A DNA stretch of 60,219 bases from an uncultured bacterium (GCA_964511315.1 CAZEFF010000007.1:1-60219); one strand, 5' to 3'; shown: positions 10,055 to 47,491, numbered from the stretch's first letter. The notes: generated by a model not told the origin, from the letters alone. A program made the numbers and translations.

Positions 10055-11728
10055 GACTACTATTATGTTACCTGGGATATCCGCGACTTGTTGACGAATG
10101 CCGCATTGAGTGAATTGACGGTTAAGCAAACCAAAAACAGTGATGAAACTTTTGTTCAATGGCAGGAAACCGGTGTGACAACAAATCCGCCTAGAATTCA
10201 GCCGACTCCTTACGGAGTGTGGGGAACCGTTTGGAAGAAAACAGGGTATGGTGATCTTGTTGTGGTTGTCGAAGCGGATCATGATCAAAGCTTCCAGCTC
10301 TTCATGGAAACCACTGTTATTCACTTGTGGTTAGCGGATACCCGTACATCTTTTAACCCTACGACAAAACAGTTGGATGTCCAAGGCTGGTTGTCCCGTG
10401 ACGGTTCGTTAACGAGCGGTGCCGTTAGCGCGACATATAAAATTTATGACGGCCCGACTCTTATCGGAACATATGCGCTTGATAAAGTTTTAGACCCGGG
10501 GCTTATTAGCGGAACGAACCCGGATGGATTTACGGGTTATTTCCATAAGACCATCGATGGTTCGGCGTCTGGAATTAATCTTCAGACCGGTAAAGTTTAC
10601 ACCACGCTCTGCGAAATGCCTATTGCCTCTGGCGGTTCCTTTAAAACGCCTTCGAGCTTTGAAATCACGACTCCGTCAACCTTGCAGTCTGTGAGCGATA
10701 CCGTTAACACGATGCTCGACAAACCGCTGTCACAAGTTGAATCAAATATCCGTACGGATATGAATAATCAGCTAACTGATGTTAAAAATGTCGTGACGGA
10801 TAAACTGGATAACCAAACGGCGATTGTGACGAGTAAATTGGACAATCAAACCGCGGTTGTTACGCAGAAATTGGACGAACAAACGACCCTTATTTCAGAC
10901 GCGATCACGGACTTTACGGAAAAGTCAGATGCGGCCGTTTCCCGCATGCAGGATGAAATTACGCGGGGTTCGATTCGCATGATTCTTCCTGATTCCGTTA
11001 AGCTCGGTTCATCAGTGACCATCCGTCTTGCCACTGCTGAAGGCGTTTCTCCGACAGTCGATATTATGTGCCCGGATGGAAGTTTAATTGCCGGCGGGCT
11101 TGCGTTGTCGGCGACAGCGAGCGACCCCAGTATTTATACGGTTGATTTCCAGTTTACGGCGCAAAATGCTAAATGCGCGATCGCGAAGGCGGTTACGATT
11201 GTCGGATCTGCGACGATTGCCAGCAATAACCCTAATGAGGGTCCCTTTGTAGCAACAGCGGTCGGCAGTATGGCCGTGACGTCAACGGATCTTGATACGA
11301 TTCAGGGTCTTGCGGCCGCCGGCTTGAATGCTGAAAAGGCCGCTAAGGATGCTAAAGATGCCATTATGGACGTGGTGAAGAGCTTGCAAGGGGACGGCAG
11401 TATCCAGGATTCTATTGCCCGTCTGCAGGAGAAGGTTGACCGCTTGCCCGCTCTCATGAATAAGGGAGAAGATGGCCAAGCACAAATGCGCAATACTTTG
11501 GAAGATGTTGCCGATAAACTAGATACCTTTGTGGGTAAAGAAGGGTATGATTTAAGAACGATCTTGAAGCAGGAAATTGGAGAAGGCATGAAGGGCGTAC
11601 GCAACAAGGTTGAGCAGATGAAAGCTTCGTCGGACATTGTGAAAGAAATTGTTGAGAGAAAAGTCGGTAAATCCGATGAACCTATTATCCAAACCTTTTA
11701 CGAAATTGGTGATGCGGGTGTTCAATGA
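5..11728 (+). CDS. Giant repetitive Ig-like surface protein/adhesin, 5'-truncated by the window (>3907 aa)
   Basis: The frame is open from the window edge and begins mid-repeat (KLEYS...). It has 34 complete plus 1 partial ~97-aa repeats (T-S-P-N-G-G-E-x-W...ITW...NVKLEYST...YxWxVPD...RVRVSD...D-x-S-D-A-N-F-x-I), resembling Ser/Thr-rich Kre9/KNH-like beta-sandwich domains, followed by a ~555-aa unique C-terminus with coiled coils. Confidence 0.9.
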   Translation: MEYSKNGFSDELQTFSITASTPNNGSFAWTVPDAIGSTVKVRASDAADSTVNDTSNANFTIKGSLTLTSPNGTELWKVGESRNVTWNRTGSIANVKLEYSTDGGSNYSSTIIASTDAGTGTYSWTVPDAIGTQLRVQVSDVTDATVKDGSDANFEIRGTVTLVSPNGGEVWIVNSQHNITWTKTGTFATVALEYSTNAFADELQTTTIATGVDSVTGTPYLWTVPDTIGSALRVRVTNEANTLVKDLSDLNFKIAGSLTLTAPNGGENWGVGTQQTITWNRVGSIANAKLEYSIDGGSNYGNVIAASTGAAAEAYLWTIPDSIGANRKVKISDATDATVLDVSDANFTIMGTFDVTAPNGGEVWTVGSGQSLAWNTTGTVSNVKLEYSTNAFSDELQTTVITANTANSGTYSWTVADAISNLVKIRVSDVNNANAFDVSNAIFKIRGALLVTSPNGGEPWEIGTSHNIAWTRTGSIANVKVEYSTNAFADELQTDVIIASTAASTGTYAWTIPDNPSVTVKVRVTDASDATVLDTSNANFTIKGRLVLSVPNGGEIWTVAGVNNIQWTKFGSISNVALYYSTDSGNTWPGGANQIVSSTAADPAPADNIGIYSWTIPDAIGTQVRVRVQDALDPSTYDDSDADFKIRGSITVTSPNGGEVWVVSANQNITWTSTGTYSNAKLEYSTNAFVDENQVFSITAATPNNGSFAWSIPDAISSTVRVRASDASDSTVNDISNANFTIKGALTLTSPNGTEIWKVGENRSITWNRTGSIANVKLEYSTDGGSSFPNTIISSTDASTGTYSWTVPDAISSQLRVQVSNVTDATVKDSSDANFEIKGTILLTAPNGGEVWTVNALKNITWTKTGTYATVALEYSTNAFADELQTTTIATGVDSVTGTPYAWTVPDTIGSALRVRVTNESDAAVKDASDLNFKIVGSLTLTAPNGGENWAVGSSKTITWNRVGSIANAKLEYSIDGGSNYGNVIAASTGAAAEAYLWTIPDSIGANRKVKISDATDATVSDVSDANFTIMGAFAITAPNGGEVWTVGSGQLLTWNTTGSVSNVKLEYSTNAFSDELQTGVVVANVANSGTYNWTVGDAISNLVRIRVSDVNNAVAYDTSDASFKIRGALLVTSPNGGEPWEIGTVHNIAWTRTGSIANVKLEYSTNAFSDELQTAVIIASTAADPAPADNDGTYAWTIPDTPSVTNKVRVSDASDATVLDTSNSNFIIKGRLVMSIPNGGEIWTVAGVNNIQWTKFGSISNVQLQYSTDSGSTWPIGNLIVASTAADPAPADNIGVYSWTIPDAISTTLRVRVQDTSDSSTYDDSDADFKIKGAITVTSPNGGEIWIVGTNQNITWSSAGSFSNVKLEYSTDAFSDELQTFSVTTATPNNGSFNWTLPDAIGSSVRVRASDAGDSSVVDVSNSNFTIKGALSLTSPNGGEVWKVGETRAITWNRSGSIANVKLDYSVNGGSGYGNAIVASTSAASGTYNWTIPDAIGTQVRVQVADASDSTVKDTSDANFSIKGTVLLVTPNGGEQWAVNTANNITWTKTGTYSTVALEYSTNGFADELQTTTIATGVDSVTGTPYAWTIPDTIGASNKVRVSNESDATVTDKSDNTFKIVGSLTLTAPNGGESWNVGASKTVSWNRVGSIANVKLEYSTTGASPYPNLIVSSTSAGAGAYSWTVPDAIGTNLKVKVTDVTDSTVYDESDASFAVVATFNITQPNGGEVWTVASTQNITWTTTGSVANVKLEYSVDNGTDSYANVIANTTPNNLTYSWTIPDTISTLMKVRISDVNNANGFDTSNAVFKIRGALTVDAPNGGEAWGIGTARNIQWTRTGSIANVKLEYSTNGFSDELQTALIIGSTPADPAPADNIGIYSWTIPDVPSTTVKVRATDVADATVLDTSNSVFSIKGSLTITAPNGGENWIVGTPYNITWIKGGAISNVKLQYSTDSGNTWPDPSKLIISSTSAGFLSYTWTIPDDINNKGRVRILDANDPSVNDASDADFAIKGSLHITSPDGTEIWTVGDAHAITWTKTGTIANVKLDYSVDGGSSYTGTITASTGAAAGTYNWVVPDAISTQVRVKITQTNDSFVTDESDADFKIRGSITVTSPAGGEVWKVADNQPITWTKTGTIPTVEIKYSTNGGSSYPNSIATAVDGSSGSYSWTIPNAITTNGRIKVINESDTTVYGESAADFKIAGSVTVLTPNGGEKWPIGSSQNITWSITGSISSLKLEYSTTGGAPYSNLITSSVTASLGTYAWTIPDAPTTQGRVLATNTADATVFDASNSNFKIQGSVTLTSPVGGETWNVGDSHNITWTKNGSFTNVKLEYSTDSGSTYSGVIIASTSADSLAYSWTVPDSISSGVRVKVSDTGDIEVASESASDFTIRGTLTVTVPNGGETWRVGQAQNITWSKTGSIDEAKLEYSTNGFANETQTTVIVATTPASNLSYAWNIPDAISNTVKIRITDVSGVSVGDVSNGNFSIKGTVTLTSPNGGESYGVASAQNITWTRTGSFANVKLEYSTNGFADESVSYLITSSTPADPAPADDNGTYAWTVPDAISQTVKVRVTDANDAATTDVSNNTFTIRGILTITSPNGGEKWIVGTAQLISWDRFGSIANVRLQYTTNGSIYTDITASTPNTGTYAWTVPNSITTTGKVRIYDVNNATVTDDSDANFKIQAGFTLTSPNGGEAWLVGSTQTITWNTSGTVSFIRLDYSTDSGSNYSNVISSSTGNTGSYDWVIPDSPSPTVKVKVSDTNDAEAFDASNADLRIRVAFTLVSPNGSEQWRVGQTKNITWVTVGTIANVKIIYSRDGFLADNQTISAAAPGTGTYAWTIPDSISNTVRVKISDPNDIGAADTSNGDFRITGDFTVTSPNGGEKWDVDSDHAITWAYAGSVPNASIEYSTNAGGSWSSVAGLTPNNGSYNWTVPDTISANSRVRLSDPNDATANDISDANFKIRAGYTLTAPNGGEIWTVADVHAITWTNTGTVANSKLWYSTDSGSTFPNVIIASTANTGTYNWTVPDAISTLVRVRAGSATDVDAYDDSNADLKIRGAFHVVTPDGAEQWKIAQNSNITWTTTGTISNVKLYYSTDSGSNFSNVIIASVANTNSYTWNIPDVPTTMARVRVENPLDATVFDDSDADFKIQGNFIMVSPNGGESWIVNSSHNITWDWGGTIPNVKLTYSTDSGLNYNSTISASAPNGSGSAGTANYAWTIPDNISTQVRVKIEDPNDATVNDSSNANFKIRGDLVLTSPNGGERWVTNETHAITWNTTGTIPNVKLTYSHDDFSTSTTIMASVSNTNTYNWVVPDPGVNNIPKTTKVRVEDVNDSNVFDDSDAAFNIDYYYVTWDIRDLLTNAALSELTVKQTKNSDETFVQWQETGVTTNPPRIQPTPYGVWGTVWKKTGYGDLVVVVEADHDQSFQLFMETTVIHLWLADTRTSFNPTTKQLDVQGWLSRDGSLTSGAVSATYKIYDGPTLIGTYALDKVLDPGLISGTNPDGFTGYFHKTIDGSASGINLQTGKVYTTLCEMPIASGGSFKTPSSFEITTPSTLQSVSDTVNTMLDKPLSQVESNIRTDMNNQLTDVKNVVTDKLDNQTAIVTSKLDNQTAVVTQKLDEQTTLISDAITDFTEKSDAAVSRMQDEITRGSIRMILPDSVKLGSSVTIRLATAEGVSPTVDIMCPDGSLIAGGLALSATASDPSIYTVDFQFTAQNAKCAIAKAVTIVGSATIASNNPNEGPFVATAVGSMAVTSTDLDTIQGLAAAGLNAEKAAKDAKDAIMDVVKSLQGDGSIQDSIARLQEKVDRLPALMNKGEDGQAQMRNTLEDVADKLDTFVGKEGYDLRTILKQEIGEGMKGVRNKVEQMKASSDIVKEIVERKVGKSDEPIIQTFYEIGDAGVQ
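860..3012 (+). repeat. Exact 110-bp direct repeat pair (860-969 and 2903-3012)
   Basis: Base-by-base identical, offset 2043 nt; the flanking codons differ at synonymous sites. Confidence 0.9.
10793..10891 (+). repeat. Three 33-nt (11-aa, hendecad) coiled-coil repeats
   Basis: VTDKLDNQTAI / VTSKLDNQTAV / VTQKLDEQTTL starting at 10793, 10826 and 10859. Confidence 0.85.
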
Positions 11729-12570
11729 AAAGAATAATTCTGTCCACGTTTTTGCTTGTTGTTTTTCTAAGTCCCGCCGGATTTTGCGCGGATAAAAACA
11801 GCATTAAGCTTCGGGTGGTTGCGGTCAACCCTTCGGCTGAAAAAACACAGAAAGTTCCTATCAAGATTTATCTGCCTAAAGAAATTATTCCCGATGACAT
11901 CATTAATATGGGCGAGCTGAAAGTCGGTTATGATACCGACAAGAGCCTTTATTACGCGTACAGCGACGGCGCGGAGCTGAAACCGAAGGAAACCCGCGTA
12001 TTCGAAGTTGCCCTTGAGGATGTCTGGAAGGTTAAAGATGAAGAATTAGATAAGCTTCGAAGCCAGACAGCGCTTGCTTTAAAGCATCTTGAAAAAACCC
12101 CTTATTATGACCAGGCCAAAACCATTGTCACCTCAATTGAAAACCGTTTTACAGAAATCCTCGCGAAGCAGAATGACTCAGGAATTTCCCGTGAAGAACA
12201 TATTGGCGCTTACCGCATCAATCTTAAGGTTATGGAAGAGGTCAAGTCGGACATTGCCCTGATTGAAAAAATGCTTCAAACAAGCGGCGGTCCTCCGTCA
12301 GTGCAATTTTTGAAAGACACTGTTTTTGAGCGCAAAGATGATTTGGATCGTGTTACGGCTTGGAAGCTTATCCTTGGAATCATCGGGTTTCTCGCGCTTC
12401 TTGGAGTCGCGTTTTACGTGAAGTGGTTTTTTGCCATCAAATCGCGCCGTGCGGCCCGCGCTGATGAAGCGGCAATTGGAACGGATACTATTCCGTTTAT
12501 TAGTGAAAATGTGGAGGAGCATGTTGGGCTTTCCCGCGATAAGTCCGAAAAAGATCGTAAAGTAGGCTGA
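11725..12570 (+). CDS. Secreted/periplasmic single-pass membrane protein of unknown function
   Basis: N-terminal signal peptide (MKRIILSTFLLVVFLSPAGFCA), beta-rich domain, helical segment and C-terminal TM (LILGIIGFLALLGVAFYV). ATGA overlap with the giant gene. Confidence 0.8.
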   Translation: MKRIILSTFLLVVFLSPAGFCADKNSIKLRVVAVNPSAEKTQKVPIKIYLPKEIIPDDIINMGELKVGYDTDKSLYYAYSDGAELKPKETRVFEVALEDVWKVKDEELDKLRSQTALALKHLEKTPYYDQAKTIVTSIENRFTEILAKQNDSGISREEHIGAYRINLKVMEEVKSDIALIEKMLQTSGGPPSVQFLKDTVFERKDDLDRVTAWKLILGIIGFLALLGVAFYVKWFFAIKSRRAARADEAAIGTDTIPFISENVEEHVGLSRDKSEKDRKVG

Positions 12571-12577
12571 TTCCCGC

Positions 12578-12823
12578 ATGTTCCAAGTTCTCATTCTTAA
12601 ATCCCGCCCCAAAGATTCAGACGAAATTATCTTTCAAGGCCAGGCAGGAAGTGTGTCTCTACCTGGCTCTGAAGGAGAATTCGAAGTTTTAAATTTCCAT
12701 AAACCCATCTTAAGCCGGCTGAAAAAGGGGACCATTGTGGTCGATAATACTAAAGAGTTCCCTGTAACCGGAGGTATCGTAAAAATGGCCTCGCAAAGCC
12801 TTGTCGCGATTATTGATGGCTAG
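12578..12823 (+). CDS. atpC: F-type ATPase epsilon subunit, N-terminal beta-sandwich only (81 aa)
   Basis: VSLPGSEGEFEVLNFHKPILSRLKKG matches the epsilon N-domain motif; the C-terminal helical hairpin is absent. Confidence 0.8.
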   Translation: MFQVLILKSRPKDSDEIIFQGQAGSVSLPGSEGEFEVLNFHKPILSRLKKGTIVVDNTKEFPVTGGIVKMASQSLVAIIDG

Positions 12824-12838
12824 GAGCAGACAACGTTT

Positions 12839-13066
12839 ATGAAGAATTTTGCAGTTATTCTCATTATGGCGCTTGGAACCATCGGACCGTCGATCGTTAT
12901 CGCGGCTGTGGGGTTTTCCAGCATTATGGCGCTTGGACGAAATCCATCGGCGGCGCCAAAAATTATGCTCGCGATGATTATCGCGCTTATTTTCGCGGAA
13001 GCAATTGCGGTGATCGCGCTTCTTGTTGTGTTTCAAGTGTTTACGCCTGCGGGCGGAGGAATCTAA
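12839..13066 (+). CDS. atpE: F-type ATPase c subunit (divergent)
   Basis: Two hydrophobic helices, GRNP loop and the conserved carboxylate in FAEAIA. Confidence 0.9.
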   Translation: MKNFAVILIMALGTIGPSIVIAAVGFSSIMALGRNPSAAPKIMLAMIIALIFAEAIAVIALLVVFQVFTPAGGGI

Positions 13067-13068
13067 AG

Positions 13069-13815
13069 ATGATCTGGGGTGTTATATTATTTCAGGGCAT
13101 TATCTTTGCCGTGCTCATATTTGTCCTCCGGCATTTTATGCAAGGACATGTTTCCGGCGCGGTTGGACATTTAGAGAAGCTAAATGAAGAGTTGCTAAAG
13201 CAGCAGGCGGAGCTAAAGGCTAAAATTTCAGAAGCGGAAAAAGAGTATGATTCGAAGATGGCGAAAGTTCAGCAGGAAGTCACTGCGAGGCAAAGCCAGG
13301 TTCGGCAGGAAGCGAATAAAACTCTGGAAGAAGCCAGGGCGCGCGGGCAGGAGGAGCGGGAAAAACTCATTAAAGAAGCGATTGATACGCGCGACAAAAT
13401 CAAGAATGAAATTATGGTTCAAATGGAAGAAAAAGCCGTGGATTACTCAAAGGAAGTCATCGCGCAATTTCTATCCGGCGACATCCGGAAATTTGTTCAT
13501 GAAACGCTTGTCAAAGAAGTCCTTGATGGAATTAAGGATATGCCGATTGAACATTTTCAAATTGATAGCCCAACAGCAGAATTCATATCCGCCGAACCTT
13601 TAAGTGACAGTCTTAAAAAACAGATCTATTCTGTTTTAAAAGAAAAGATTAAGCAGGATGTTCAATTTAAAGAGGATGTGGATTCTGCGCTTGTCGGCGG
13701 AATTATTCTTAAGTTTGGAAGCTTTGTTATTGACGGCAGCCTTGCGAACCGCCTCAAAGAAGCAACGTCAAAAATAAAGGTGGAAACAAAACGGAAGTAT
13801 TTAGGGAAAACCTAG
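13069..13815 (+). CDS. atpF: F-type ATPase b subunit fused to a delta/OSCP-like C-terminal domain
   Basis: N-terminal TM, long charged coiled coil, and C-terminal SAEPLS...VDSALVGGIILKFGSFVIDGSLANRL typical of delta. Confidence 0.85.
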   Translation: MIWGVILFQGIIFAVLIFVLRHFMQGHVSGAVGHLEKLNEELLKQQAELKAKISEAEKEYDSKMAKVQQEVTARQSQVRQEANKTLEEARARGQEEREKLIKEAIDTRDKIKNEIMVQMEEKAVDYSKEVIAQFLSGDIRKFVHETLVKEVLDGIKDMPIEHFQIDSPTAEFISAEPLSDSLKKQIYSVLKEKIKQDVQFKEDVDSALVGGIILKFGSFVIDGSLANRLKEATSKIKVETKRKYLGKT

Positions 13816-13821
13816 GCGGAT

Positions 13822-15315
13822 ATGGCATCTGAATTAGAAAATCCCAACCCTTCTCTAAAGCCCAAAATTGAAATCCGTGAAATTGGACATGTGCGTGAAA
13901 TTCGCGAATCCATCGCGCGGGTGGAAGGCTTGCCTTCAGTTATGAACGGGCAAATTGTTCATTTTGGCCATGAAGGTAAGGGGATGGTGATGGGTTTTAC
14001 CGAAAAAGAAGTGCTCGTTCTTATGTTTGGCGGTAAGGAAAAAGTAAAAGCGGGTGATGAGGTTTGGAGCCGGGGAGAAAGATTTGTTTTGCCCGCGGGA
14101 GAAAAATTCATCGGCCGCATTGTCAGCGCTTTGTGTGACCCCTGTGATGGGAAGCCCCCGATTGAACCCGATGAGTATATTCCTGCTTTTTCTGTCGCGC
14201 CTGGCGTTATGGAACGTAAACCTGTTTACGCGCCTTTGGACACAGGAGTGAAGATTCTGGACGCGATTATCCCTGTTGCCAGGGGACAGCGGCAGCTGAT
14301 TATCGGTGACCGCATGACCGGAAAGACAACGATTTGCACGGATACTATTCTCGCGCAAAAAGGAAAAGATATTATTTGTATTTACTGCTGTGTGGGCCGG
14401 AGTTACTCCAATTTATTAAAAGTAGTCGAAATTTTTAAAGATCATGACGCTTTTAAATATACCATTATTGTCGCAGGGACGGCGTCCGCGCCGGCTGGCG
14501 AACAATTTCTGTCACCATATACGGCTTGTGTTTTGGGCGAGTATTTCATGATGCGCGGAAAAAATGTTTTTGTGGTTTTTGATGACTTGACGAAACATGC
14601 TTGGGTTTACCGCCAACTATCGCTTTTGCTCGATCGTCCTCCAGGCCGTGAAGCTTATCCCGGCGATATTTTTTATATTCATTCGCAGCTTGTTGAGCGG
14701 GCCGGCCAGATGAGTGATGAAAATGGGGGAGGGTCGATGACCTTTTTCCCTATTTGCGATACTTTGCAGGGAGACGTAACGGGGTATGTGCAGACCAATT
14801 TAATTTCTATGACGGATGGTCAAACCGTTGTGAGCTCAGCGCTTTTTAATCAGGGGGTTAAACCCGCGATTGATTTTGGACTTTCTGTTTCCCGTATTGG
14901 AAATAAAGCAAGCGTTCAAGCGATGAAGAAACTCGCGGGTAAACTGCGCTTGGAATATCTGCAATATAAAGAACTTGTGCGTATGACTCAGTTGAAAACA
15001 ACGCTGTCAGATGAGGCTTCCGCCCGTCTGCGCCGTGGGGATGTCATTACCGAGATGCTTATGCAGAATAAACAGGAACCTTCTCCCATTGAAGAGCAAA
15101 TTTTGCACTTGTACGCGCTTCGCCAGGGTGTGCTGGACCCATTATCCAATACAACGCTTAAGCGCTTCAAAAAGGAAATTCTCGGCTACGCGAATAAAGA
15201 GTTTTCGAGCTTGATGACTGAGCTCACGACAAAGTGGGAGCTCAATGATAGTACGTCAAAAGGCATGGACGAACTTTTTAAGAGTTATTTTAATAGTCTA
15301 AAAGAAGGGGCTTGA
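13822..15315 (+). CDS. atpA: F-type ATPase alpha subunit
   Basis: Walker A GDRMTGKT, DDLTKHA, RPPGREAYPGDIFY, ISMTDGQ, and arginine finger SVSRIG. Confidence 0.95.
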   Translation: MASELENPNPSLKPKIEIREIGHVREIRESIARVEGLPSVMNGQIVHFGHEGKGMVMGFTEKEVLVLMFGGKEKVKAGDEVWSRGERFVLPAGEKFIGRIVSALCDPCDGKPPIEPDEYIPAFSVAPGVMERKPVYAPLDTGVKILDAIIPVARGQRQLIIGDRMTGKTTICTDTILAQKGKDIICIYCCVGRSYSNLLKVVEIFKDHDAFKYTIIVAGTASAPAGEQFLSPYTACVLGEYFMMRGKNVFVVFDDLTKHAWVYRQLSLLLDRPPGREAYPGDIFYIHSQLVERAGQMSDENGGGSMTFFPICDTLQGDVTGYVQTNLISMTDGQTVVSSALFNQGVKPAIDFGLSVSRIGNKASVQAMKKLAGKLRLEYLQYKELVRMTQLKTTLSDEASARLRRGDVITEMLMQNKQEPSPIEEQILHLYALRQGVLDPLSNTTLKRFKKEILGYANKEFSSLMTELTTKWELNDSTSKGMDELFKSYFNSLKEGA

Positions 15316-15322
15316 TCTAAGC

Positions 15323-17597
<2,275 letters not shown>

Positions 17598-17599
17598 TT

Positions 17600-18040
17600 A
17601 TGGCGATACGTATTGGTGAATTGCTCATTAAAAAAGGTTTGGTGAATCCCGATCAATTGGAAACCGCCCTTCGTGATCAAGCGACTTCAGGAGAATTTCT
17701 CGGTAATATTCTGATTCGGCTTGGGTATATTACCGAGGAAAATCTTCTTACGGCGCTGGCTGAACAATTTCAAACGCGTTTTGTAAGTTTAGAAAAAGTT
17801 TACGTCAATCCTCAGGTGATTAAAATGGTCCCGGGAAATTTGGTCCGCGAATATAAATTCCTGCCCATCGAAATGCGGTCGGGTGTGATGCTGATTGCTG
17901 TGTCGAATCCATTGGATATGTGGCCAATGAGTGTTTTGCATCAGCGAATCGAGCTTTCTGAAATTACGATTGTTTTAGCTAAAAAAGATGATATTCAAAA
18001 AGCGATACAAAAGCATTATGGCGCCGAAGGCGTCCTTTAA
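17600..18040 (+). CDS. Stand-alone MshEN/T2SSE_N domain protein (probable c-di-GMP receptor)
   Basis: Tandem motifs RIGELLIKKGLVNPDQLETALRDQ and FLGNILIRLGYITEENLLTALAEQ; no ATPase domain. Confidence 0.85.
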   Translation: MAIRIGELLIKKGLVNPDQLETALRDQATSGEFLGNILIRLGYITEENLLTALAEQFQTRFVSLEKVYVNPQVIKMVPGNLVREYKFLPIEMRSGVMLIAVSNPLDMWPMSVLHQRIELSEITIVLAKKDDIQKAIQKHYGAEGVL

Positions 18041-18054
18041 GCGGGAGAATTAAC

Positions 18055-19776
18055 GTGGCAGATAATTTGATTGAAATGCTTCTGAAGCGAAACTTGGTAA
18101 AAAATGATCAAGTGGAAGAAGCTACGGAAGAAAAGAAAAAAACGGGAGAGCCGCTGGCCCGGATCTTGGTCCGCAAAGGCCATCTTCGTGAAGAAGATCT
18201 GGCGAGAACGCTAGCGGATCAGTTTAAAATTCCGTTTATCCGCTTTGGAAAGTTTTTAATCGAAAAAGATGTGATCGATAAAATTCCGGCAAAATTAGCC
18301 CTGCATTACCGCATGATTCCCATTAAAGGCACCGCGAATACGCTTACGGTTGCCATTTCTGACCCGCAGAATATCCGCGCGATTGATGATATTAGTGTTG
18401 CCCTTAAAAATAAGTACCGTGTTGAGCCGGTTCTAGCGACGGAATCTGATATTTTGGGCGCGATTAAAAAATATTATGGTCTCGGCGCGGAAACGGTTGA
18501 GGGGATGATAACTTCCCGCGCGGGAGATGGGAGCGCGGTTGATTCTGGGGAAGAAGCACAGATTGATGACATCGAAAAAATGGCGGGAGACGCCTCGATT
18601 GTTAAGTTGGTGAATCAAGTGATGCTTGAGGCTTGGAAAAAGCGAGCGACCGATATTCATATTGAGCCGTACCGTGAAAAGCTGGCCCTTCGATACCGTG
18701 TAGACGGTATCCTTTATCCGGCAGAAGTGCCTGAACATATCCGCAGATTTTTACCCGCCATCATCTCGCGTATTAAAATTATGTCGAACTTAAATATTGT
18801 TGAGCGGAGACTTCCTCAGGACGGCCGCGCTTCGATTAAAGTTGGGAATGAAAAAATGGATCTGCGTATTTCCATTCTCCCGACACCGCATGGAGAAAGC
18901 GTTGTGATCCGTATGCTGCCGACCTCCAAGTCGATCAAAATGACCGATTTGGGTTTAACGGAAGAGCATCAAAAAATTTTGGAAGAATTAATTCTGAAAC
19001 CTTACGGAATTATCTTTGTGACGGGGCCTACCGGGGCGGGTAAATCAACAACGCTTTACGCGAGTCTTTCAAAAATCAATACGCCGGAAAGAAAAATTAT
19101 CACGATTGAAGATCCGATTGAGTATGAGCTTGAGGGGGTAACGCAAATTCAGGTGATGCCCCAAATTGGCCTTACATTCGCGCAGGGCCTTCGCAGTATG
19201 CTGCGCCATGATCCTGACGCGATGATGGTCGGAGAAGTGCGCGACTTTGAAACGGCTGAGCTTGCTATCCGCATTGCTTTGACGGGTCATCTTGTTTTTT
19301 CAACACTTCATACCAATGACGCGGCTAGCGCGGTCACGCGTTTAATTGATATGGGAGTAGATCCCTTTTTGATTGTTTCTTCGGTAGAATGTTTCATCGC
19401 GCAGCGGCTTATCCGTCTTATATGTAACAAATGCAAAAAGGAGGATAAGCGCGCGATTACCCCTGAAATTGAGCAGGAGCTTCGAGGCTGCCAAAAAGGG
19501 AAGGGCGGGGACATTAAATTATGGATTGGTGAAGGGTGTGAAGACTGTAACCACCTGGGTTATCGTGGGCGGACAGGCATCCATGAATTTTTACTGCTGA
19601 CGCGGCCCATCAAAGATCTCATTATGAAAAAATCGTCCGCGGATGATATCAAGCGTGCCGCGATCCAGAATAATATGCGGACACTACGGCAGGCGGGTTG
19701 GGAGAAAGTGCTCGAGGGTGTTACGACGATTGATGAAATTCTTCGCGTAACTCAAATTTCCGCGGATGAAGAATAG
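18055..19776 (+). CDS. gspE: T2SS/type IV pilus assembly ATPase GspE/PilB
   Basis: GPTGAGKST, TIEDPIE, GEVRD, GHLVFSTLHTND, CxxC...CxxC; GTG start. Confidence 0.95.
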   Translation: MADNLIEMLLKRNLVKNDQVEEATEEKKKTGEPLARILVRKGHLREEDLARTLADQFKIPFIRFGKFLIEKDVIDKIPAKLALHYRMIPIKGTANTLTVAISDPQNIRAIDDISVALKNKYRVEPVLATESDILGAIKKYYGLGAETVEGMITSRAGDGSAVDSGEEAQIDDIEKMAGDASIVKLVNQVMLEAWKKRATDIHIEPYREKLALRYRVDGILYPAEVPEHIRRFLPAIISRIKIMSNLNIVERRLPQDGRASIKVGNEKMDLRISILPTPHGESVVIRMLPTSKSIKMTDLGLTEEHQKILEELILKPYGIIFVTGPTGAGKSTTLYASLSKINTPERKIITIEDPIEYELEGVTQIQVMPQIGLTFAQGLRSMLRHDPDAMMVGEVRDFETAELAIRIALTGHLVFSTLHTNDAASAVTRLIDMGVDPFLIVSSVECFIAQRLIRLICNKCKKEDKRAITPEIEQELRGCQKGKGGDIKLWIGEGCEDCNHLGYRGRTGIHEFLLLTRPIKDLIMKKSSADDIKRAAIQNNMRTLRQAGWEKVLEGVTTIDEILRVTQISADEE

Positions 19777-19787
19777 GGCAAGCGCGC

Positions 19788-21038
19788 ATGCGATTTATTT
19801 ACAAAGCAAAAAAGGGCCCCGGAGAAATCATTCAAGGGGAGGTCGAGGCTGATAATGAAGACGCGGCGCTTGGAAAAATTACAGCAGCCGGTCTTGTCCC
19901 TGTAAAGCTTACACCGATCGGTCTTGAGATCCCTTCCCCTGCTTCGGGAAAAAGGGAGGGCATTGCCGAAACGGCTCCGGTCAATTTTAACCGCCAGCAA
20001 GTCCGTATCACACACCGGGACCTTAATGTTTTTACCCGTCAATTCGCCATTCTCTCAAAAGCGAGTGTTCCGCTTTTGAAAATTTTTGACGTCCTTTCTA
20101 ACCAAACTCAAAATCTAAAGTTCCGTTCCGTGCTTAAAGAAATTCAGAAAAAACTTCAGGACGGCGGCGGGCTTTCAGAAACTTTGGCGATATATCCGAA
20201 AATATTTTCTCAAATTTATGTGAGCTTGATTCATTCCGGAGAAATTAGCGGAACTCTCGATCAGGTTTTGGCAAAGCTCGCGGAGTTCGCTGAAAAGGAG
20301 GCGGAGACGCGGGCGAAAGTTCAATCCGCGATGATTTATCCCGCGTTCCTTTTTCTCGTTGGGATTGGCACGGTATTTATTCTGATGACCTTTGTGATGC
20401 CTCGTCTCATGGGGCTTTTTTCGGATCTGGGCACACCGCTTCCCGGCATTACGATTTTTATGATGAGTATCAGCCGCTTCCTTCAGCGTACCTGGATTTT
20501 TATCGGGGCCGCCATTGCCGCCGTTGTTTTTTGGCTTAGGACCAAAGGGCTGAGTGATTCGCAGCAAAGACAGCTTGACCATTTTCTCGCGCACGCGCCC
20601 GCAATTGGGAAGGTGGTCGAAAAATCCGAGGTGGCCCGGTTTCTGCGGTCTATTGAGCTGCTTTATGAAAATGGAATTCCGCTTTATAAAGCGGTGAGTA
20701 TCGGCGCGAAGACAGTGACCAATGTTCTTATCCGTGAACAGCTTGAAAAAATCCCGGACCTATTAGAGGGCGGCGCGACTTTGGCAAAAAGTCTTGAGCA
20801 GGCACCGTTCGTTTCACCCTTTGTGTGCCAAATGGTTGCGGTAGGTGAAGAGTCGGGGGCTCTGACTTCTGCCCTTCGCGAAACGGCTTTGTTCTATGAA
20901 CAGGAAACGGATCAATTTGTAAAGCTCGCGACGTCGCTTCTGGAGCCTTTTATGATTTTAAGTATTGGGATTGTTGTCGGATTCATTGTTATTTCTATGC
21001 TGCTGCCTATCTTCGAAATTCATGTTGCCGCGCAATAA
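19788..21038 (+). CDS. gspF: T2SS/T4P inner-membrane platform protein GspF/PilC
   Basis: Two GspF domains (FTRQFAIL...SGEISGTL; GEESGAL...EP) and three TM segments. Confidence 0.92.
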   Translation: MRFIYKAKKGPGEIIQGEVEADNEDAALGKITAAGLVPVKLTPIGLEIPSPASGKREGIAETAPVNFNRQQVRITHRDLNVFTRQFAILSKASVPLLKIFDVLSNQTQNLKFRSVLKEIQKKLQDGGGLSETLAIYPKIFSQIYVSLIHSGEISGTLDQVLAKLAEFAEKEAETRAKVQSAMIYPAFLFLVGIGTVFILMTFVMPRLMGLFSDLGTPLPGITIFMMSISRFLQRTWIFIGAAIAAVVFWLRTKGLSDSQQRQLDHFLAHAPAIGKVVEKSEVARFLRSIELLYENGIPLYKAVSIGAKTVTNVLIREQLEKIPDLLEGGATLAKSLEQAPFVSPFVCQMVAVGEESGALTSALRETALFYEQETDQFVKLATSLLEPFMILSIGIVVGFIVISMLLPIFEIHVAAQ

Positions 21039-21056
21039 AACAGTGAAAAGCCGCTT

Positions 21057-21536
21057 GTGAAGAATGAAGTGAAAACCCCAAAAAGAATAAAAACTCTATC
21101 AAGAAATTTCCGCCATTCGCTTTTCATTTTTCGTGCTTCAAATGGTTTCACGCTCATAGAAGTTCTCGTCTCAGTGATTATTCTTGCCTTTGGGCTTGTG
21201 CTTGTTGCGGAGGGAATGAGCCGAACGGAGCAAGCGTACCGCATCTCCCAAAACGCGGTCATCGCGAGCCAAATTGCCGATGAAAAACTGATGGAATCTG
21301 AAATCGAAGTCCGGCAAAGGCACAAGCTTAGATATTCGTTTGATGATGGCCAGGAAAAATTTCCCGGAAAATTTTTTGACTGGAAGCGCGAAGTCAGAGG
21401 CTATTCGCACGAATCGATTTTGGATGAAACAAAGCTTAGCCGGGTGGATGTTACGCTGGACTGGAAAGACGGAGCCGTCCGGAATAACTCCGAAGTTTTT
21501 TCAACGCTTGTGATGAACAGAGAAAAAGAGAAATGA
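21057..21536 (+). CDS. Minor pseudopilin, GspI/PilV-like
   Basis: Prepilin cleavage motif G|FTLIEVLV; the start codon is uncertain. Confidence 0.75.
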   Translation: MKNEVKTPKRIKTLSRNFRHSLFIFRASNGFTLIEVLVSVIILAFGLVLVAEGMSRTEQAYRISQNAVIASQIADEKLMESEIEVRQRHKLRYSFDDGQEKFPGKFFDWKREVRGYSHESILDETKLSRVDVTLDWKDGAVRNNSEVFSTLVMNREKEK

Positions 21537-22228
21537 TGAAAATTTTATCTGTCCAGCTCCGGGTTCAGAGGCAAAACGGCTTTACTCTTCTTGAAACCCT
21601 TCTTGCGATTACGCTTTTCGCGATTGTGATTAGTTCCAGTTATGGAATTTTTAGTATGGGGATTCAGATTTGGAAAAGATCCCAAGGCCGCTCTTTGGTC
21701 GAGCGTAAGGCGACGCTTGCCTTGGAGCGCATGGGGCAGGATGTGAGGAATGCAATCTTTACGGTATCAAGCGGTGAGGCGGGGCTATCACAAGCTGAGC
21801 CCGAATTTAGCGGAAATGAAAAGTCTTTTAGTTTTCCCGCGATAGTGGCCGCTTCGGATAAAAAAGGCCGCGTCATGAATCAATATGGCGCTGTCATTTA
21901 TGAATGGAATAGTGGGGGAGACCTATGCCGGCGGGCAAAGTCAGCCACCGACTTATATTTAAGGAGGGATTCGGAATGCCGTGTTTTGGCGCAGGGGATT
22001 AAGAAGCTAAAATTCGAATATTTGCTCTATCAAAGGATTACGAAAAGTTTGTCTTGGTATAATAGCTGGGACTTGAAGGATGGAATGCCTCAGGCAGTGC
22101 GCGTGAATTTGGAGCTCGAAGAAAAAATGAAAGGCGAGCGCAGAGGAATCGTTAAGAAGTATCAAAGGACTTTTCTCGTCCCGGTCGCTGAAAACCCCGT
22201 GAATGACGGGGGAGGCGAGAATGTTTAA
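21533..22228 (+). CDS. Minor pseudopilin, GspJ-like
   Basis: G|FTLLETLL motif; position between the I-like and K-like genes. Confidence 0.75.
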   Translation: MMKILSVQLRVQRQNGFTLLETLLAITLFAIVISSSYGIFSMGIQIWKRSQGRSLVERKATLALERMGQDVRNAIFTVSSGEAGLSQAEPEFSGNEKSFSFPAIVAASDKKGRVMNQYGAVIYEWNSGGDLCRRAKSATDLYLRRDSECRVLAQGIKKLKFEYLLYQRITKSLSWYNSWDLKDGMPQAVRVNLELEEKMKGERRGIVKKYQRTFLVPVAENPVNDGGGENV

Positions 22229-23267
22229 GCGGCTTAAGGATGATCGGGCCAGTGTGCTAATTGCGGTGATCTGGATGCTGGCGATACTGGCCGTTTTTAC
22301 TGTCGCGGTCAACCGGCAAGCGTCTCAAGAACTGATGCTGGGATCCTGGATGAAAGATAAAATTGAAGCGAGTGCTTTAGCGCGTGCTGGAATTGCCCGC
22401 GCGGTCTTTGAACTTCAACAGGATAAGTTCCGGACATTTGACGCGCTGAATGAGAATTGGGCTTCCAATGAACGGGCGTTTAGCAATATTGCGTTAGGAC
22501 CGGGGACTTTTTCGGTTGAGTGCCGGGAAGCCGGTCCTGAGAAAACGAATGGAAAAAATTCGAGTCCGCGTTATGGTCTTTGCGATGATTCCGGGCGCAT
22601 TAATATCAATAAGGCTTCTGAAATTGTGCTGACCAAACTTTTAGCCGCCGCCTCAAGCGATATCAGTCCGGAAAAAGCCGGACATATCGCGCAAGCCATT
22701 ATTGATTGGAGAGATCAGGATGATAACCCGCTTCAAAACGGAGCGGAATCATCATACTACCGGTCGCTGTCCACTCCTTACAGCGCGCGCAATAAAAACT
22801 TTGATAGCGTAGAAGAGCTTCAGATGGTGAAAGAGATCGACCCTAAAATTTTTAAAGCCCTGAAACCTTTTGTGACGATCTATGGGGACGGTGTTCTAAA
22901 TTTCAACACAGCTTCCGCGGCCGCTCTGCAGGCGGTGGGTTTAAGCTCAGAGCTGGCTCAAGCGCTTATGGAATTCCGGGGGGGAGCGGACAGGGTTTTA
23001 GGAAACAAAGATGATGAAATCTTTCAAGATGCAGGAGAAATTGTGTCATCGGTCAGCTCCTCGATTACCCTAGGTGCGGATGATCACGCAGCCCTGGAAA
23101 ATGCGGTCGCTCAAAACCTTATAGGCACCAAATCAAATACCTATAGAATTCACTCAGTTGGCCGTTTAAAGAAAGATAGCCATGCCTATGAACATTGGGT
23201 TACATCTGTAGTGACCCGCGAAGGAGCGGTTTTGTATTGGCATGAAGGAGAAGGGGGAGAGGATTGA
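22221..23267 (+). CDS. gspK: Minor pseudopilin GspK
   Basis: ASVLIAVIWMLAIL N-terminus, RININKAS, IIDWRDQD, GAESSYY, NFDSVEEL. Start moved to ATG 22221, which follows GGAGG. Confidence 0.88.
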   Translation: MFKRLKDDRASVLIAVIWMLAILAVFTVAVNRQASQELMLGSWMKDKIEASALARAGIARAVFELQQDKFRTFDALNENWASNERAFSNIALGPGTFSVECREAGPEKTNGKNSSPRYGLCDDSGRININKASEIVLTKLLAAASSDISPEKAGHIAQAIIDWRDQDDNPLQNGAESSYYRSLSTPYSARNKNFDSVEELQMVKEIDPKIFKALKPFVTIYGDGVLNFNTASAAALQAVGLSSELAQALMEFRGGADRVLGNKDDEIFQDAGEIVSSVSSSITLGADDHAALENAVAQNLIGTKSNTYRIHSVGRLKKDSHAYEHWVTSVVTREGAVLYWHEGEGGED

Positions 23268-24853
23268 GTAAGACGGCGTTTAAATTTGAGGGACTCAAAA
23301 AGATTCCGCTGCCCGCGATGACTTTGCCTTGGACCCGTAAAAACTATGTTCTTTTAGTTGAGATCACGGATGAAAATCTTAAATTGGCGGGCGTTCTCGA
23401 TGAGGGGAAAAAACGGAAGTGGCTTTGGGCCGTATCGGATTCCGTTGTCGATTTGAATGAGATTCAGATCAGCCAAAAAATCCATCAAATTTTAAAAGCC
23501 ACCTTTTTTAAGCCGACTAAAGTGGTGATTGTTCACCCGACCAAACAGCTCACGACCCGTGTGCTTTCGCTCCCTTCTGTGGATGACCGAGAAATTAAGG
23601 ATATCCTGGATCTGCAAGCGGTCAAACAGACGCCTTATACCAAAGATGAAATTACGACAGGTTTCCGGCTTATTGACCGTTCCGGCGCTGGATATTCTCA
23701 GGTGCTGCTCGCTATTTCGCACCGTGACATTTCTACTCGGTACTGCCGTATTTTGGAGATCGCGCGGCTCATTCCTGATCAAGTCACCACATCCATCGAG
23801 GGCCTTTGGGCCTGGTTCCTCCAAGCTAAAGCAAAGGATGCCATCGCGGAGACAGATATTATTTTGTTTCTTGATATTGATTGGGGAAGCACGGATCTTA
23901 TGATTTTTGGCGGGAAAAAACTTCTTTTTAATCGAAATCTGGGCATTGGCGGAAAACAGCTTCAGGATGGAGGCGAAAGCGCCCAGTCCGATTTTGAGCG
24001 CGAAGTGGAACGTTCTGTTGAATTAGGCGCTCCCGAGCTTAAAAATATGAAAGTGAGTCATGTGGTTTTGGGCGGGATTGCGGGAAGGTTTAAAGACGTC
24101 GCCGCGGTGATATCACGCGAGCTGAATGTGCCCTGCGAAATTCTTCCTGTTTTTCAAAGCTTTCCCGGACAGGCGCCGGCATCCATTGCCCAGGCTGGCG
24201 AGCCAACCGACTTGGGGCAGGTTTCGTGGGCTGGGATTGCTGGGCTTGCGCTTGATCCCCAAGCGGGACAAATGAATCTACTTCCCGGAGAAGCGAAGCT
24301 CCGAAAAAATTTGCAGGACCGCGGCAAAGATTTGGCTATGTTTGGGACCCTATTAATGGCGCTTATCATGATGATTTCAGGGGCTGTTTTTACGCGGTTT
24401 TATAAAAAAACTTCTTATCTGAATAATCTTAAAAAAATGTACATTTCGATCAAAGGAGAGTCGGAAGGCATCGAGCGGACAGTCGCGAAAATGAAAATCG
24501 CTCAGGAACAGATGTCAGCCAACGGCAGTTTTTTGGATGTCTTCCGCGATATACAAATAGTTTTACCTCCAACGATCAGTCTGACTTCATTTGAGTATCA
24601 GGCGAAAGATAAAACGGTTGTGATCCGCGGAATTTCTGAAGAGATGTCCACGATTTTTCAATTTCTCTCGACGCTGGAAGCTACGCCTTATTTGGAATTT
24701 GTGAAGACGCGCAATGTGAGCAAACGCAAAGTGGAAGAGAAAGAGCTCGCGGAGTTTGAGATGATTGCCAATATTGAAACGAAAGCTGCGAATGCGGCGC
24801 CCCCAAAAGGGGAGACACGCCCAGCGGCCGATAGTCTGAAGGGGGAAAAATGA
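23264..24853 (+). CDS. PilM-like actin-fold domain + TM + PilN-like domain (GspL-type architecture)
   Basis: FLDIDWGSTDL (degenerate actin-fold motif), QMNLLP before a TM, C-terminal ferredoxin-like periplasmic domain. Confidence 0.7.
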   Translation: MSKTAFKFEGLKKIPLPAMTLPWTRKNYVLLVEITDENLKLAGVLDEGKKRKWLWAVSDSVVDLNEIQISQKIHQILKATFFKPTKVVIVHPTKQLTTRVLSLPSVDDREIKDILDLQAVKQTPYTKDEITTGFRLIDRSGAGYSQVLLAISHRDISTRYCRILEIARLIPDQVTTSIEGLWAWFLQAKAKDAIAETDIILFLDIDWGSTDLMIFGGKKLLFNRNLGIGGKQLQDGGESAQSDFEREVERSVELGAPELKNMKVSHVVLGGIAGRFKDVAAVISRELNVPCEILPVFQSFPGQAPASIAQAGEPTDLGQVSWAGIAGLALDPQAGQMNLLPGEAKLRKNLQDRGKDLAMFGTLLMALIMMISGAVFTRFYKKTSYLNNLKKMYISIKGESEGIERTVAKMKIAQEQMSANGSFLDVFRDIQIVLPPTISLTSFEYQAKDKTVVIRGISEEMSTIFQFLSTLEATPYLEFVKTRNVSKRKVEEKELAEFEMIANIETKAANAAPPKGETRPAADSLKGEK

Positions 24854-25392
24854 TCAGTTTGCCTAAAAAACTGACTCCTCGTGAACAGAAGATTTTGTTC
24901 GTGACCGTTTTTTTTGCGGTCATTGCCGCCGGATATTACGGTGTTTGGCGTCCCGCTTTGGCCAAATTTCTTAGTCTTGACGATGAGATTTTTGCGATGG
25001 AAATGAAGCTTCGAAAATCCAAGATTTTTCTGCGTCAAAAAGATGAAATTATGGCGGAAGCGAAAAAATATCCTAATCTTGCTCAAATGGATGCTGGGAA
25101 GGACGAAGAAGAAATTGCCCGGCTGCTCAATCTGATCGAGCAAACAGCCCGCAAAGCCGGCGTTTCTCTCTCTGATGTTAAGCCCCAGCAAGTTCAGTCC
25201 GACAAAGTCTCTAAGCGTTTCGCAGTAGAGCTTCACGCGGAATCAACACTTGAACAGCTGACAATATTTCTTTACAACATTCAGGTTTCTTCGGAGCTTC
25301 TGAAAGTGGAACAAGTGCAGACTGCGCCTAAAGAAGAAAAATCTCAAATATTGCGTTCTTTTTTAACTGTGACGAGAATGGTTGTTAAGTGA
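24850..25392 (+). CDS. PilO/GspM-like alignment protein
   Basis: LTPREQKIL + TM + coiled coil + ferredoxin-like domain; ATGA overlap. Confidence 0.75.
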   Translation: MISLPKKLTPREQKILFVTVFFAVIAAGYYGVWRPALAKFLSLDDEIFAMEMKLRKSKIFLRQKDEIMAEAKKYPNLAQMDAGKDEEEIARLLNLIEQTARKAGVSLSDVKPQQVQSDKVSKRFAVELHAESTLEQLTIFLYNIQVSSELLKVEQVQTAPKEEKSQILRSFLTVTRMVVK

Positions 25393-25405
25393 TAAGGAGT
25401 AAAAA

Positions 25406-25831
25406 ATGAAAAAAATGAATTTTGAAAAAGGGTTTACGTTGATTGAAATTCTTTTGGTGGTTATTATTATTGGAATTTTGGTATCGCTTGTAGCGCCGCG
25501 TCTAGCTGGCCGGTCTGAAGAGGCGCGGAAGCAAGCTGCTAAGGCGGATATTGAGGGGGGGCTGGCGCTTTCACTTGATTTATTCGAAGTTGATAATGGG
25601 AAATATCCCGCCACGCTTGATGAGCTTTTGAACAAGCCTTCTGATGCCTCAAATTGGAAAGGGCCTTACTTAAAGAAAGGTTTGCCTAAGGATCCTTGGG
25701 GAAATCCGTATGTTTATAAGATACCCGGGACGCATAATACGAGCAGCTATGATCTTTATTCGTTAGGGCAGGATAAACAGGAAGGTTCTCAAGACGATAT
25801 TGTAAACTGGAAAAATGAAAATCCCTATTAG
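25406..25831 (+). CDS. gspG: Major pseudopilin GspG
   Basis: G|FTLIEILLV, DNGKYP, WKGPYL, KDPWGNPYVY, YDLYSLGQD...EG..DDI. Confidence 0.95.
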   Translation: MKKMNFEKGFTLIEILLVVIIIGILVSLVAPRLAGRSEEARKQAAKADIEGGLALSLDLFEVDNGKYPATLDELLNKPSDASNWKGPYLKKGLPKDPWGNPYVYKIPGTHNTSSYDLYSLGQDKQEGSQDDIVNWKNENPY

Positions 25832-26616: not shown

Positions 26617-26818
26617 ATCTTTCTCCAGGGCCTATTATTTTTACGTTAAAGAAGTTTAATTCTTTACGGCAAAATTATATCATAGACTTTATTCGGGTTA
26701 AAGCTTTGAGCAGGAATAAGTTAGGAAAGCTTAGGGTTAAGCTTTAGGGGGCGCGGGCCGATAATTTGGAAGGCCATTTAAGCATGAAATTAGCCGGCCT
26801 AAGCAGTTGAAAGGGCTT

Positions 26819-36445: not shown

Positions 36446-36482
36446 GAAATACCTCCTGAATACGTTGATTGATTAGAGTTAA

Positions 36483-36511
36483 ATTATATCGTCCGCTATA
36501 GTTAAAGTCAT
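36483..36511 (-). promoter_or_regulatory. Candidate internal sigma70 promoter for cyclase 2 - precursor - kinase
   Basis: On the minus strand: ATGACT (36511-36506), 17 nt, TATAAT (36488-36483), then AGGAGGT before ATG 36445. Confidence 0.5.
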
Positions 36512-41152: not shown

Positions 41153-41187
41153 TAGATATATATTTTCTCCAGATCTGATTTCCTGGG

Positions 41188-47482: not shown

Positions 47483-47491
47483 AGGAGAAAT

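Follow-up and report, generated by a model that had tools for sequence, protein, structure and literature searches.

The 60,219-nt stretch of DNA analyzed here (contig CAZEFF010000007.1, positions 1-60219, from the uncultured bacterium assembly GCA_964511315.1; hereafter the window) carries genes for six F-type ATPase subunits and none for subunit a, in one operon with a giant surface protein and a filament machine resembling a type II secretion system (T2SS). The closest relatives of its beta subunit come from Omnitrophota, and the nearest named genome is Ca. Taenariivivens baikalensis (class Omnitrophia). On balance, we lean toward viewing this as the Omnitrophota 'symbiotic' F-type ATPase locus, encoding an ATP-hydrolyzing mechanical motor that is coupled to a membrane-anchor module and a pseudopilus, and not an ATP synthase or ion pump.

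ATPase subunits and the missing subunit a

Open reading frame (ORF) calls and Pfam/NCBIfam scans settled an array of 17 same-strand genes running from the giant ORF to gspG (Table 1), in the order giant immunoglobulin (Ig)-repeat protein, 281-aa protein, epsilon, c, b/delta, alpha, gamma, beta, MshEN, GspE, F, I, J, K, L, M and G. All 16 junctions between these genes fall within -26 to +18 nt. An earlier reading made from the sequence alone (the sequence-only reading) had proposed exactly this order, with overlaps or gaps of under 20 nt throughout, and both statements were reproduced. A promoter and terminator scan inside the operon gave no signal exceeding shuffled expectation, and an Rfam scan of the window returned no RNA family. 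The operon ends with gspG, with a terminator-like hairpin at 25850 and the next gene on the opposite strand.

Relatives were sampled by a gamma-alignment scan with one genome per species, which yielded 65 loci, and the window proteins were mapped onto them as profiles. All of the loci (65/65) derive from Omnitrophota or Omnitrophota-like metagenome-assembled genomes.

A subunit a with an essential Arg and half-channels is a feature of the canonical F1Fo ATP synthase. We found no match to ATP-synt_A among the ORFs of the cluster or of the remaining 60-kb window, and GspF is the cluster's only multi-transmembrane (TM) protein. In the 65 species-level loci, neither a subunit a nor any other ORF with at least four predicted TM segments besides GspF was found in the cluster or its vicinity (about 10 kb), and the precomputed Pfam lists of neighbor genes on further contigs contained no ATP-synt_A. 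The sequence-only reading had noted the lack of a multi-TM subunit a in the operon, which thus extends to the window and to about 10 kb around 65 loci. Multi-TM ORFs elsewhere in the relatives' flanks were rejected as subunit a because they are unrelated (DUF1189, a GPDPase_memb-like protein and a PAS kinase); the remaining multi-TM flank ORF, of 162 aa in locus L058, has no Pfam match. A subunit a concealed in the giant protein was also rejected for its visible 3907 aa, which contain neither a TM segment nor an ATP-synt_A match; all database copies of the giant are truncated by a contig end on the N-terminal side. When canonical Omnitrophota atp operons were sought among lower-identity beta matches, both contigs examined turned out to hold the same locus type. 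The KEGG Orthology (KO) table published by Seymour et al. 2023 (PMC10066038) lists K02111 and K02112 for genome 221, but not K02108.

The catalytic part of the enzyme looks canonical. Alpha and beta clear the canonical atpA (541 vs 484 bits) and atpD (561 vs 463 bits) cut-offs, and a motif check recovered Walker A and B, the catalytic Glu in GERIREG and YVPADD in beta, together with GDRMTGKT and the Arg finger in SVSRIG in alpha, in line with the earlier claim that the catalytic motifs are unbroken. Their PDB neighbors are canonical bacterial F1 chains (about 440-500 bits); for beta, the canonical beta chains score 440-477 bits and the M. mobile G1-ATPase beta (9io5) 343 bits. The cut-offs of other ATPase families were not reached. 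This holds for the N-ATPase models (NCBIfam alt_F1F0; alpha 500 vs 750, beta 496 vs 752 and b 62 vs 225 bits), for the Mycoplasma MMOB1660/1670 and MSC_0618/0619 models scored against alpha and beta (384 vs 600, 420 vs 850, 295 vs 520 and 394 vs 570 bits), and for the FliI/SctN models (170-190 bits vs cut-offs of 380-620).

The other subunits lie far under their canonical cut-offs, with 50 vs 194 bits for gamma, 41 vs 67 for epsilon and 26 vs 124 for c. The b/delta protein finds its best full-length match, end to end, in the N-ATPase b model TIGR03321, at the 62 bits given above. Bacterial epsilon typically has two domains, and its C-terminal helices inhibit ATP hydrolysis. In this family at most 11 residues follow the epsilon beta-sandwich (46/46 loci), so the C-terminal domain has been lost family-wide. 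Judged from sequence, the loss of these inhibitory helices may be read as a sign of a hydrolase.

Subunit c is more unusual. The window c has a loop R34-N-P and a carboxylate at E54 (codon GAA at 12998-13000), with 20 residues from R34 to E54, the same spacing as from R41 to D61 in E. coli c. Of 47 distinct family members, 27 have Q in the carboxylate column, 19 have E and one has F. No Asp or Glu occurs anywhere in the hairpin of 27 of the 28 non-E sequences, and the carboxylate has therefore not simply been relocated. E and Q forms are interleaved on the neighbor-joining tree of alpha plus beta, which implies several independent switches. Removal of the carboxylate abolishes ion translocation in characterized F-type enzymes (E. 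coli cD61 mutants); therefore, the c-ring is predicted to be unable to carry ions in most family members. The GRNPS loop is invariant in all 46 readable c sequences (the 47th is masked by N), and the contact surface for gamma and epsilon appears to be strictly kept.

Conserved gene order and the anchor module

The order epsilon-c-b/delta-alpha-gamma-beta was found in 38/38 loci possessing all six genes. GspE lies at most 2.5 kb downstream of beta in 44/45 loci, and in the window it starts 458 nt beyond the beta end. Thus, the ATPase-T2SS linkage that had been read from a single sequence is kept phylum-wide. In all relatives with sufficient flank, a large ORF homologous to the C-terminal 1000 aa of the window giant sits upstream of the ATPase. 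In distant clades, beta shares about 65% identity with its counterpart in the window, alpha and c share about 57%, gamma about 37% and b/delta about 28%. Because the tight packing and the order are kept at protein identities of 33-65%, the arrangement is old and under selection; it is also far beyond chance.

Six more contigs, found through beta or anchor-module homologues, have an identical layout as far as each contig reaches, with two short ones revealing just the module gene and then epsilon. The sole exception is L065 (CP070807.1, a complete chromosome), in which c-b/delta-alpha-gamma-beta stand alone between opposite-strand genes (7474-12246), with no epsilon, anchor module or T2SS genes nearby. 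L065 is the most divergent family member and has a Q-type c, whose gene is partly masked by a run of N in the public record, an artefact.

Several loci carry variations on this plan. In the close relative L001, a gene for a PAS/HisKA/HATPase sensor kinase of 622 aa separates gamma from beta within the ATPase gene set (8130-9998). L020 and a JGI contig (3300075153) have two tandem alpha paralogues (493 and 490 aa) ahead of gamma, which hints at a heterogeneous set of non-catalytic subunits. The ENA contig ERZ27297570 has a 438-aa ORF without a Pfam match between epsilon and c. An apparent alpha-gamma fusion in L002 (a 795-aa gene call) was rejected as an artefact of ten N at the junction (9112-9121).

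The gene directly upstream of epsilon encodes a 281-aa protein in which a signal peptide is followed by a beta-sandwich and a three-helix bundle, and then by a single TM helix that leads into a short cytoplasmic tail. The TM helix is C-terminal (residues 213-238, nt 12361-12438) and contains no Arg. An AlphaFold 2 model shows the beta-sandwich, the three-helix bundle and a long TM helix, with a predicted local distance difference test score of 85-95 over residues 30-190; a Foldseek search of this model against the PDB gave no match below E 0.01. As a substitute for subunit a this protein was rejected, since it has a single TM helix without Arg and a predicted periplasmic beta-sandwich and helical bundle, and corresponds to the detached C-terminus of the giant. 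The sequence-only reading had likewise seen no mid-membrane Arg and no obvious a substitute in it.

The visible part of the giant protein (3907 aa) contains six Kre9_KNH Ig-like domains and no TM segment, and its relatives are annotated at 2800-9221 aa. When the giant C-terminus was used as a homology query, the results were dominated by generic Kre9_KNH repeat proteins. The full-length giant-protein relatives end in sequence 38-49% identical to the 281-aa protein. Of about 40 loci, 30 have this module fused to the giant ORF as its C-terminal end and about 10 encode it in a gene of its own; the window belongs to the latter, and its 281-aa start codon overlaps the giant's stop codon (ATGA). The separated genes possess their own Sec-type signal peptides. 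By these comparisons, the 281-aa protein is the membrane-anchor module of the giant's C-terminus, now detached, and not, as had been supposed, a separate partner of it.

In 38/38 loci, a distance of 39-341 nt separates the end of the anchor module from epsilon. An exhaustive search retrieved 833 representative clusters with the module, among them shorter proteins (420-690 aa) that contain two or three copies of it in tandem. Three of these shorter proteins were checked; all three are encoded directly upstream of epsilon, and two have a cytoplasmic GGDEF domain. Because the module is found upstream of epsilon whether giant-fused, split or in short proteins, the conserved partner of the ATPase is probably the anchor module and not gigantism as such. 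The linkage to a giant adhesin that the sequence-only reading had emphasized is therefore conserved across the phylum, with the qualification that the giant is not obligatory.

Filament genes, cyclic di-GMP parts and flanking genes

The filament part of the operon comprises a core of GspE, F, G, I, J, K, L and M, all recognized by Pfam. Only GspG exceeds an equivalog cut-off (134 vs 89 bits); the best matches of the others are T2SS models, below cut-off. GspE scores about 580 bits with both the GspE and the PilB model, again below either cut-off. No secretin GspD, GspC, GspH, prepilin peptidase (GspO) or PilT was found in the 60-kb window, and GspD, GspC and GspO may be encoded elsewhere. As for markers of the type IVa pilus, the window has no PilT or PilQ, and the major pilin matches GspG, not PilA.

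Both the stand-alone MshEN protein and the GspE N-terminus pass the model for a cyclic di-GMP (c-di-GMP)-binding motif, and the stand-alone gene is present in about three quarters of the relatives. GspE includes a PilZ domain in some relatives. In a distant one (L003/L004), GspE has 715 aa, with a C-terminal PilZ plus MshEN (11883-14030), and two-component system genes take the place of the pseudopilin genes after GspF. The MshEN motifs, the PilZ domain and the GGDEF-bearing anchor variants, as recognized by sequence models, point to control by c-di-GMP.

Table 1. Positions of the 17 operon genes in the window
Gene product	Position	Strand	Basis or remark
Giant Ig-repeat surface protein, C-terminal 3907 aa	5..11728	+	Open at window's left end
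281-aa anchor-module protein	11725..12570	+	No Pfam/NCBIfam match
F1 epsilon, 81 aa, beta-sandwich domain only	12578..12823	+	PF02823 E 1.5e-10
Fo subunit c, 75 aa	12839..13066	+	PF00137 E 5.6e-8
b/delta fusion, 248 aa; N-terminal TM, long helix, OSCP-like C-terminus	13069..13815	+	PF00430 + PF00213
F1 alpha	13822..15315	+	TIGR00962 541 bits (cut-off 484)
F1 gamma, divergent	15323..16186	+	PF00231 E 9e-25; TIGR01146 50 bits vs cut-off 194
F1 beta	16191..17597	+	TIGR01039 561 bits (cut-off 463)
Stand-alone MshEN domain protein, predicted c-di-GMP receptor	17600..18040	+	PF05157; NF053729 70.7 bits vs cut-off 38
GspE/PilB-type assembly ATPase, N-terminal MshEN	18055..19776	+	PF00437 E 4e-130
GspF/PilC platform protein	19788..21038	+	PF00482 twice; TIGR02120 347 bits vs cut-off 424
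GspI-like minor pseudopilin	21057..21536	+	N_methyl; best NCBIfam match gspI, below cut-off
GspJ-like minor pseudopilin	21533..22228	+	T2SSJ; best NCBIfam match gspJ, below cut-off
GspK-like minor pseudopilin	22203..23267	+	T2SSK_1st; best NCBIfam match GspK, below cut-off
GspL-like PilM-PilN fusion	23264..24853	+	PF11104 + PF05137
GspM/PilO	24850..25392	+	PF04612; GspM model 42 bits vs cut-off 60
Major pseudopilin GspG	25406..25831	+	TIGR01710 133.7 bits vs cut-off 88.85

A gene on the minus strand (25828-26616) converges on gspG. Its product, 262 aa long, has a hydrophobic segment at the N-terminus and matches nothing in Pfam/NCBIfam. In L001, which has 87% beta identity to the window, a 259-aa gene occupies the equivalent position (19887-20666). 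Further downstream, a polysaccharide island (26807-60163) holds export genes, glycosyltransferases and sugar-nucleotide enzymes. It begins with Wza-like exporter and Wzc-like tyrosine kinase genes (26807-30042) and includes six paralogous membrane glycosyltransferases of the PMT_2 (ArnT-like) type, of which five measure 591-704 aa (39038-51495) and one 422 aa (30806-32074), as well as two asparagine synthase paralogues and a transglutaminase-like protein (34547-38687). AT skew is strongly negative from 44 to 52 kb.

A putative rotary motor, its rivals and its known relatives

In the mechanical motor that we tend to favor, a complete F1 head (alpha3beta3, gamma and the short epsilon) would sit on a c-ring with a b/delta stalk and no subunit a. 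It would rotate by hydrolyzing ATP, and ion-coupled synthesis or pumping would not be its role. The coupling of F1 to the c-ring would be retained, because the GRNPS loop is invariant, while the ion path would be gone, since subunit a is missing and the carboxylate can be dispensed with. In the inner membrane, gene adjacency suggests that the motor would be coupled both to the single-TM anchor module terminating the giant Ig-repeat fiber and to the neighboring pseudopilus platform of T2SS-like type, made up of GspE/F/L/M together with the pseudopilins G, I, J and K. Through the MshEN domains, c-di-GMP would control the whole machine, and in some relatives the anchor protein itself carries GGDEF. 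The output may be mechanical work exerted on an adhesin or pilus at the cell surface while the bacterium attaches to a host or prey cell. The sequence-only reading had proposed an ATP-driven module repurposed for the adhesin, and the idea of a non-chemiosmotic module gains support because most c subunits have lost the carboxylate and the epsilon C-terminal domain is lost universally; the novelty of the locus, as described below, had been overstated.

A number of points weigh against such a motor. The window's own c keeps the glutamate, as does its whole clade (9/9 E), and for the window organism the argument from loss of the ion path appears to run by homology only. Since its c and those of its clade retain E, ion translocation with a subunit a encoded elsewhere may still be possible there. 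The column is also limited to E or Q and not freely varying, which suggests that the position is still constrained. Retention of c and b/delta would not be expected of an F1-only motor, and, to our knowledge, the Mycoplasma F1-like motors lost both. Without subunit a, we know of nothing that fixes the stator to the rotor periphery. Finally, it is from gene adjacency only that the ATPase is linked, putatively, to the anchor module and the T2SS parts.

The main rival is an ordinary chemiosmotic F1Fo ATPase or ATP synthase with atpB elsewhere, in which the conserved gene order would involve no mechanical coupling and at most co-regulation (e.g., an ATP-driven membrane potential for secretion). 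Split atp operons do exist in other bacteria, alpha and beta pass the canonical cut-offs with canonical bacterial F1 as their nearest PDB structures, all subunits for coupling F1 to the c-ring are kept, and E54 of the window c stands at the canonical distance from the loop Arg. We nevertheless hold this explanation to be unlikely. It is weakened by the Q-type c-rings, as 28/47 members have Q or F in place of the carboxylate and 27 of these 28 have no compensating acidic residue. A conventional enzyme also fits poorly with the lack of subunit a within about 10 kb in any of 65 loci though every other subunit is there, with gamma, epsilon, c and b/delta far beneath their canonical cut-offs, with an epsilon C-terminal domain lost everywhere, and with the published KO list of an alpha/beta genome without K02108.

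A non-rotary ATPase for substrate handling or export, like FliI/FliH/FliJ at the gates of type III export, seems improbable to us. Here b/delta would be a FliH-like tether and the c-ring no more than a membrane dock, and the enzyme would feed or energize the export of the giant protein or of pseudopilins. FliH resembles a b-delta fusion, FliI alpha/beta and FliJ gamma; b and delta are indeed fused in the window, no ion path is apparent, and the genes on either side of the ATPase encode an exported protein of very large size and a system that assembles filaments. Yet the FliI/SctN models give 170-190 bits against 540-560 bits for the F1 models, a heterohexamer with non-catalytic alpha is retained, and the invariant c loop argues that the contact of gamma and epsilon with the c-ring matters. 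The split-off anchor has an ordinary Sec-type signal peptide, which implies no special exporter. Loss of subunit a, a variable carboxylate and a truncated epsilon could also describe a functionless, decaying remnant of an ATP synthase, an explanation to which we give hardly any credence. Decay would not preserve six intact, ordered and tightly packed genes in 38/38 species, beta and alpha at about 65% and about 57% identity across the phylum with their catalytic motifs, and an invariant c loop, so that, as far as sequence conservation can tell, this possibility appears effectively refuted already.

Compared with the canonical F1Fo enzyme, the window locus has alpha and beta that are members by hidden Markov model cut-off and recognizable gamma, epsilon, c and b/delta, but it differs in having no subunit a in cis, a c carboxylate that varies within the family, an epsilon without its C-terminal domain, divergent gamma, c and epsilon, and atp genes embedded in a secretion/adhesin operon. 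The N-ATPase gene order is atpDCQRBEFAG (beta-epsilon-Q-R-a-c-b-alpha-gamma), and the window order is this order rotated, minus Q, R and a. The window b shares with the N-ATPases a b-plus-delta-like architecture and the lack of a separate delta, whereas AtpQ, AtpR and a are missing and alpha, beta and b fall far under the N-ATPase cut-offs. Mycoplasma type 2/3 F1-like ATPases (the M. mobile gliding motor and the MIB-MIP associated type) offer a likeness in F1-derived alpha and beta put to non-chemiosmotic use, and a conceptual parallel of giant fiber plus ATPase, as the M. mobile gliding motor acts together with very large membrane-anchored surface proteins. We know of no c or b/delta in the type 2/3 clusters; in the window locus, by contrast, both are present and conserved, and alpha and beta are much closer to canonical F1. 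The type III/flagellar export ATPases are homohexamers of FliI/SctN type, and the window alpha and beta score below the cut-offs of that family. The filament genes resemble T2SS and type IV filament systems in their GspE, F, G, I, J, K, L and M homologues and MshE-type c-di-GMP motifs, and differ in the extra stand-alone MshEN protein, the co-operonic F-type ATPase and the lack of GspD, GspC, GspH, peptidase and PilT in the window.

Loci of this kind have been published. Seymour et al. 2023 (Nat Microbiol, PMC10066038) reported a 'symbiotic' non-respiratory F-type ATPase homologue beside type-4a pilus (T4aP) clusters in Omnitrophota, present in 56/111 Velamenicoccia species and every other class and within 10 kb on 57/66 contigs, and proposed a use in attachment or motility on host cells. 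The window shares with those loci the phylum and the placement of F-type alpha/beta genes no more than 10 kb from genes for a type IV filament. The sequence-only reading's candidate for an undescribed machine is therefore not supported as such, whereas its remark that similar loci may be noted in Omnitrophota was right. That study rests on co-location and on alpha/beta phylogeny, with a 'symbiotic' alpha clade apart from the 'respiratory' Omnitrophota alpha. It says nothing of the absence of a, of c and b/delta being kept, of the E/Q polymorphism or of epsilon being short, nor of the anchor module and the giant gene directly upstream. It names the filament system T4aP, whereas the window's parts are T2SS-like, and its placing of alpha among the Mycoplasma type 2/3 ATPases finds no support in the NCBIfam cut-offs used here. 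The absent subunit a, the lost carboxylate and the anchor module appear not to have been described previously.

A 2026 complete-genome preprint found alpha and beta in 125/176 complete genomes and a recognizable gamma in 30/176, a low count that fits the gamma divergence seen here. West-Roberts et al. 2023 (bioRxiv) and the 2026 preprint noted giant genes near T2SS/T4P-like genes and c-di-GMP parts. In those accounts the secretion locus lies upstream of giants of >30,000 aa and an F-type ATPase is unmentioned; the window differs in having its T2SS-like genes downstream, with the ATPase between them and the giant gene. The 'T2SS-like locus' near giant genes of West-Roberts et al., which lists a peptidyl-prolyl isomerase (PPIase), may overlap with the present locus; in L070, a Rotamase_2-type PPIase gene follows the T2SS-like genes (19743-20861). 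Further literature searches returned nothing more specific on the locus.

Rotary F-type ATPases are textbook ion-coupled machines, and their repurposed relatives known to us, the type III export ATPases and the Mycoplasma gliding motors, all lack a membrane rotor. Here the rotor and stalk are kept and the ion path is lost, with no subunit a and with glutamine for the carboxylate in most lineages, and one operon unites these genes with those of a fiber anchor and a pilus machine throughout a phylum whose bacteria are ultra-small and probably live as predators or parasites. We tentatively entertain, as a possibility at somewhat less than even strength, that the locus encodes a phylum-wide and mechanistically undescribed rotary machine, in which F1, c-ring and b/delta, minus subunit a and the carboxylate, would use ATP-driven c-ring rotation or torque to work, through the dedicated anchor module, a giant fiber or GGDEF protein, and also a pseudopilus, as a trans-envelope motor for attachment or attack. 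One member, Velamenicoccus archaeovorus, has been described in enrichment culture together with Methanosaeta (Seymour et al. 2023, PMC10066038), which makes the question testable, and the E/Q polymorphism is a clean experimental handle. If it is true that the locus encodes an ATP-driven mechanical motor, this would be a new way of using a c-ring and could explain how Omnitrophota deploy their giant adhesins.

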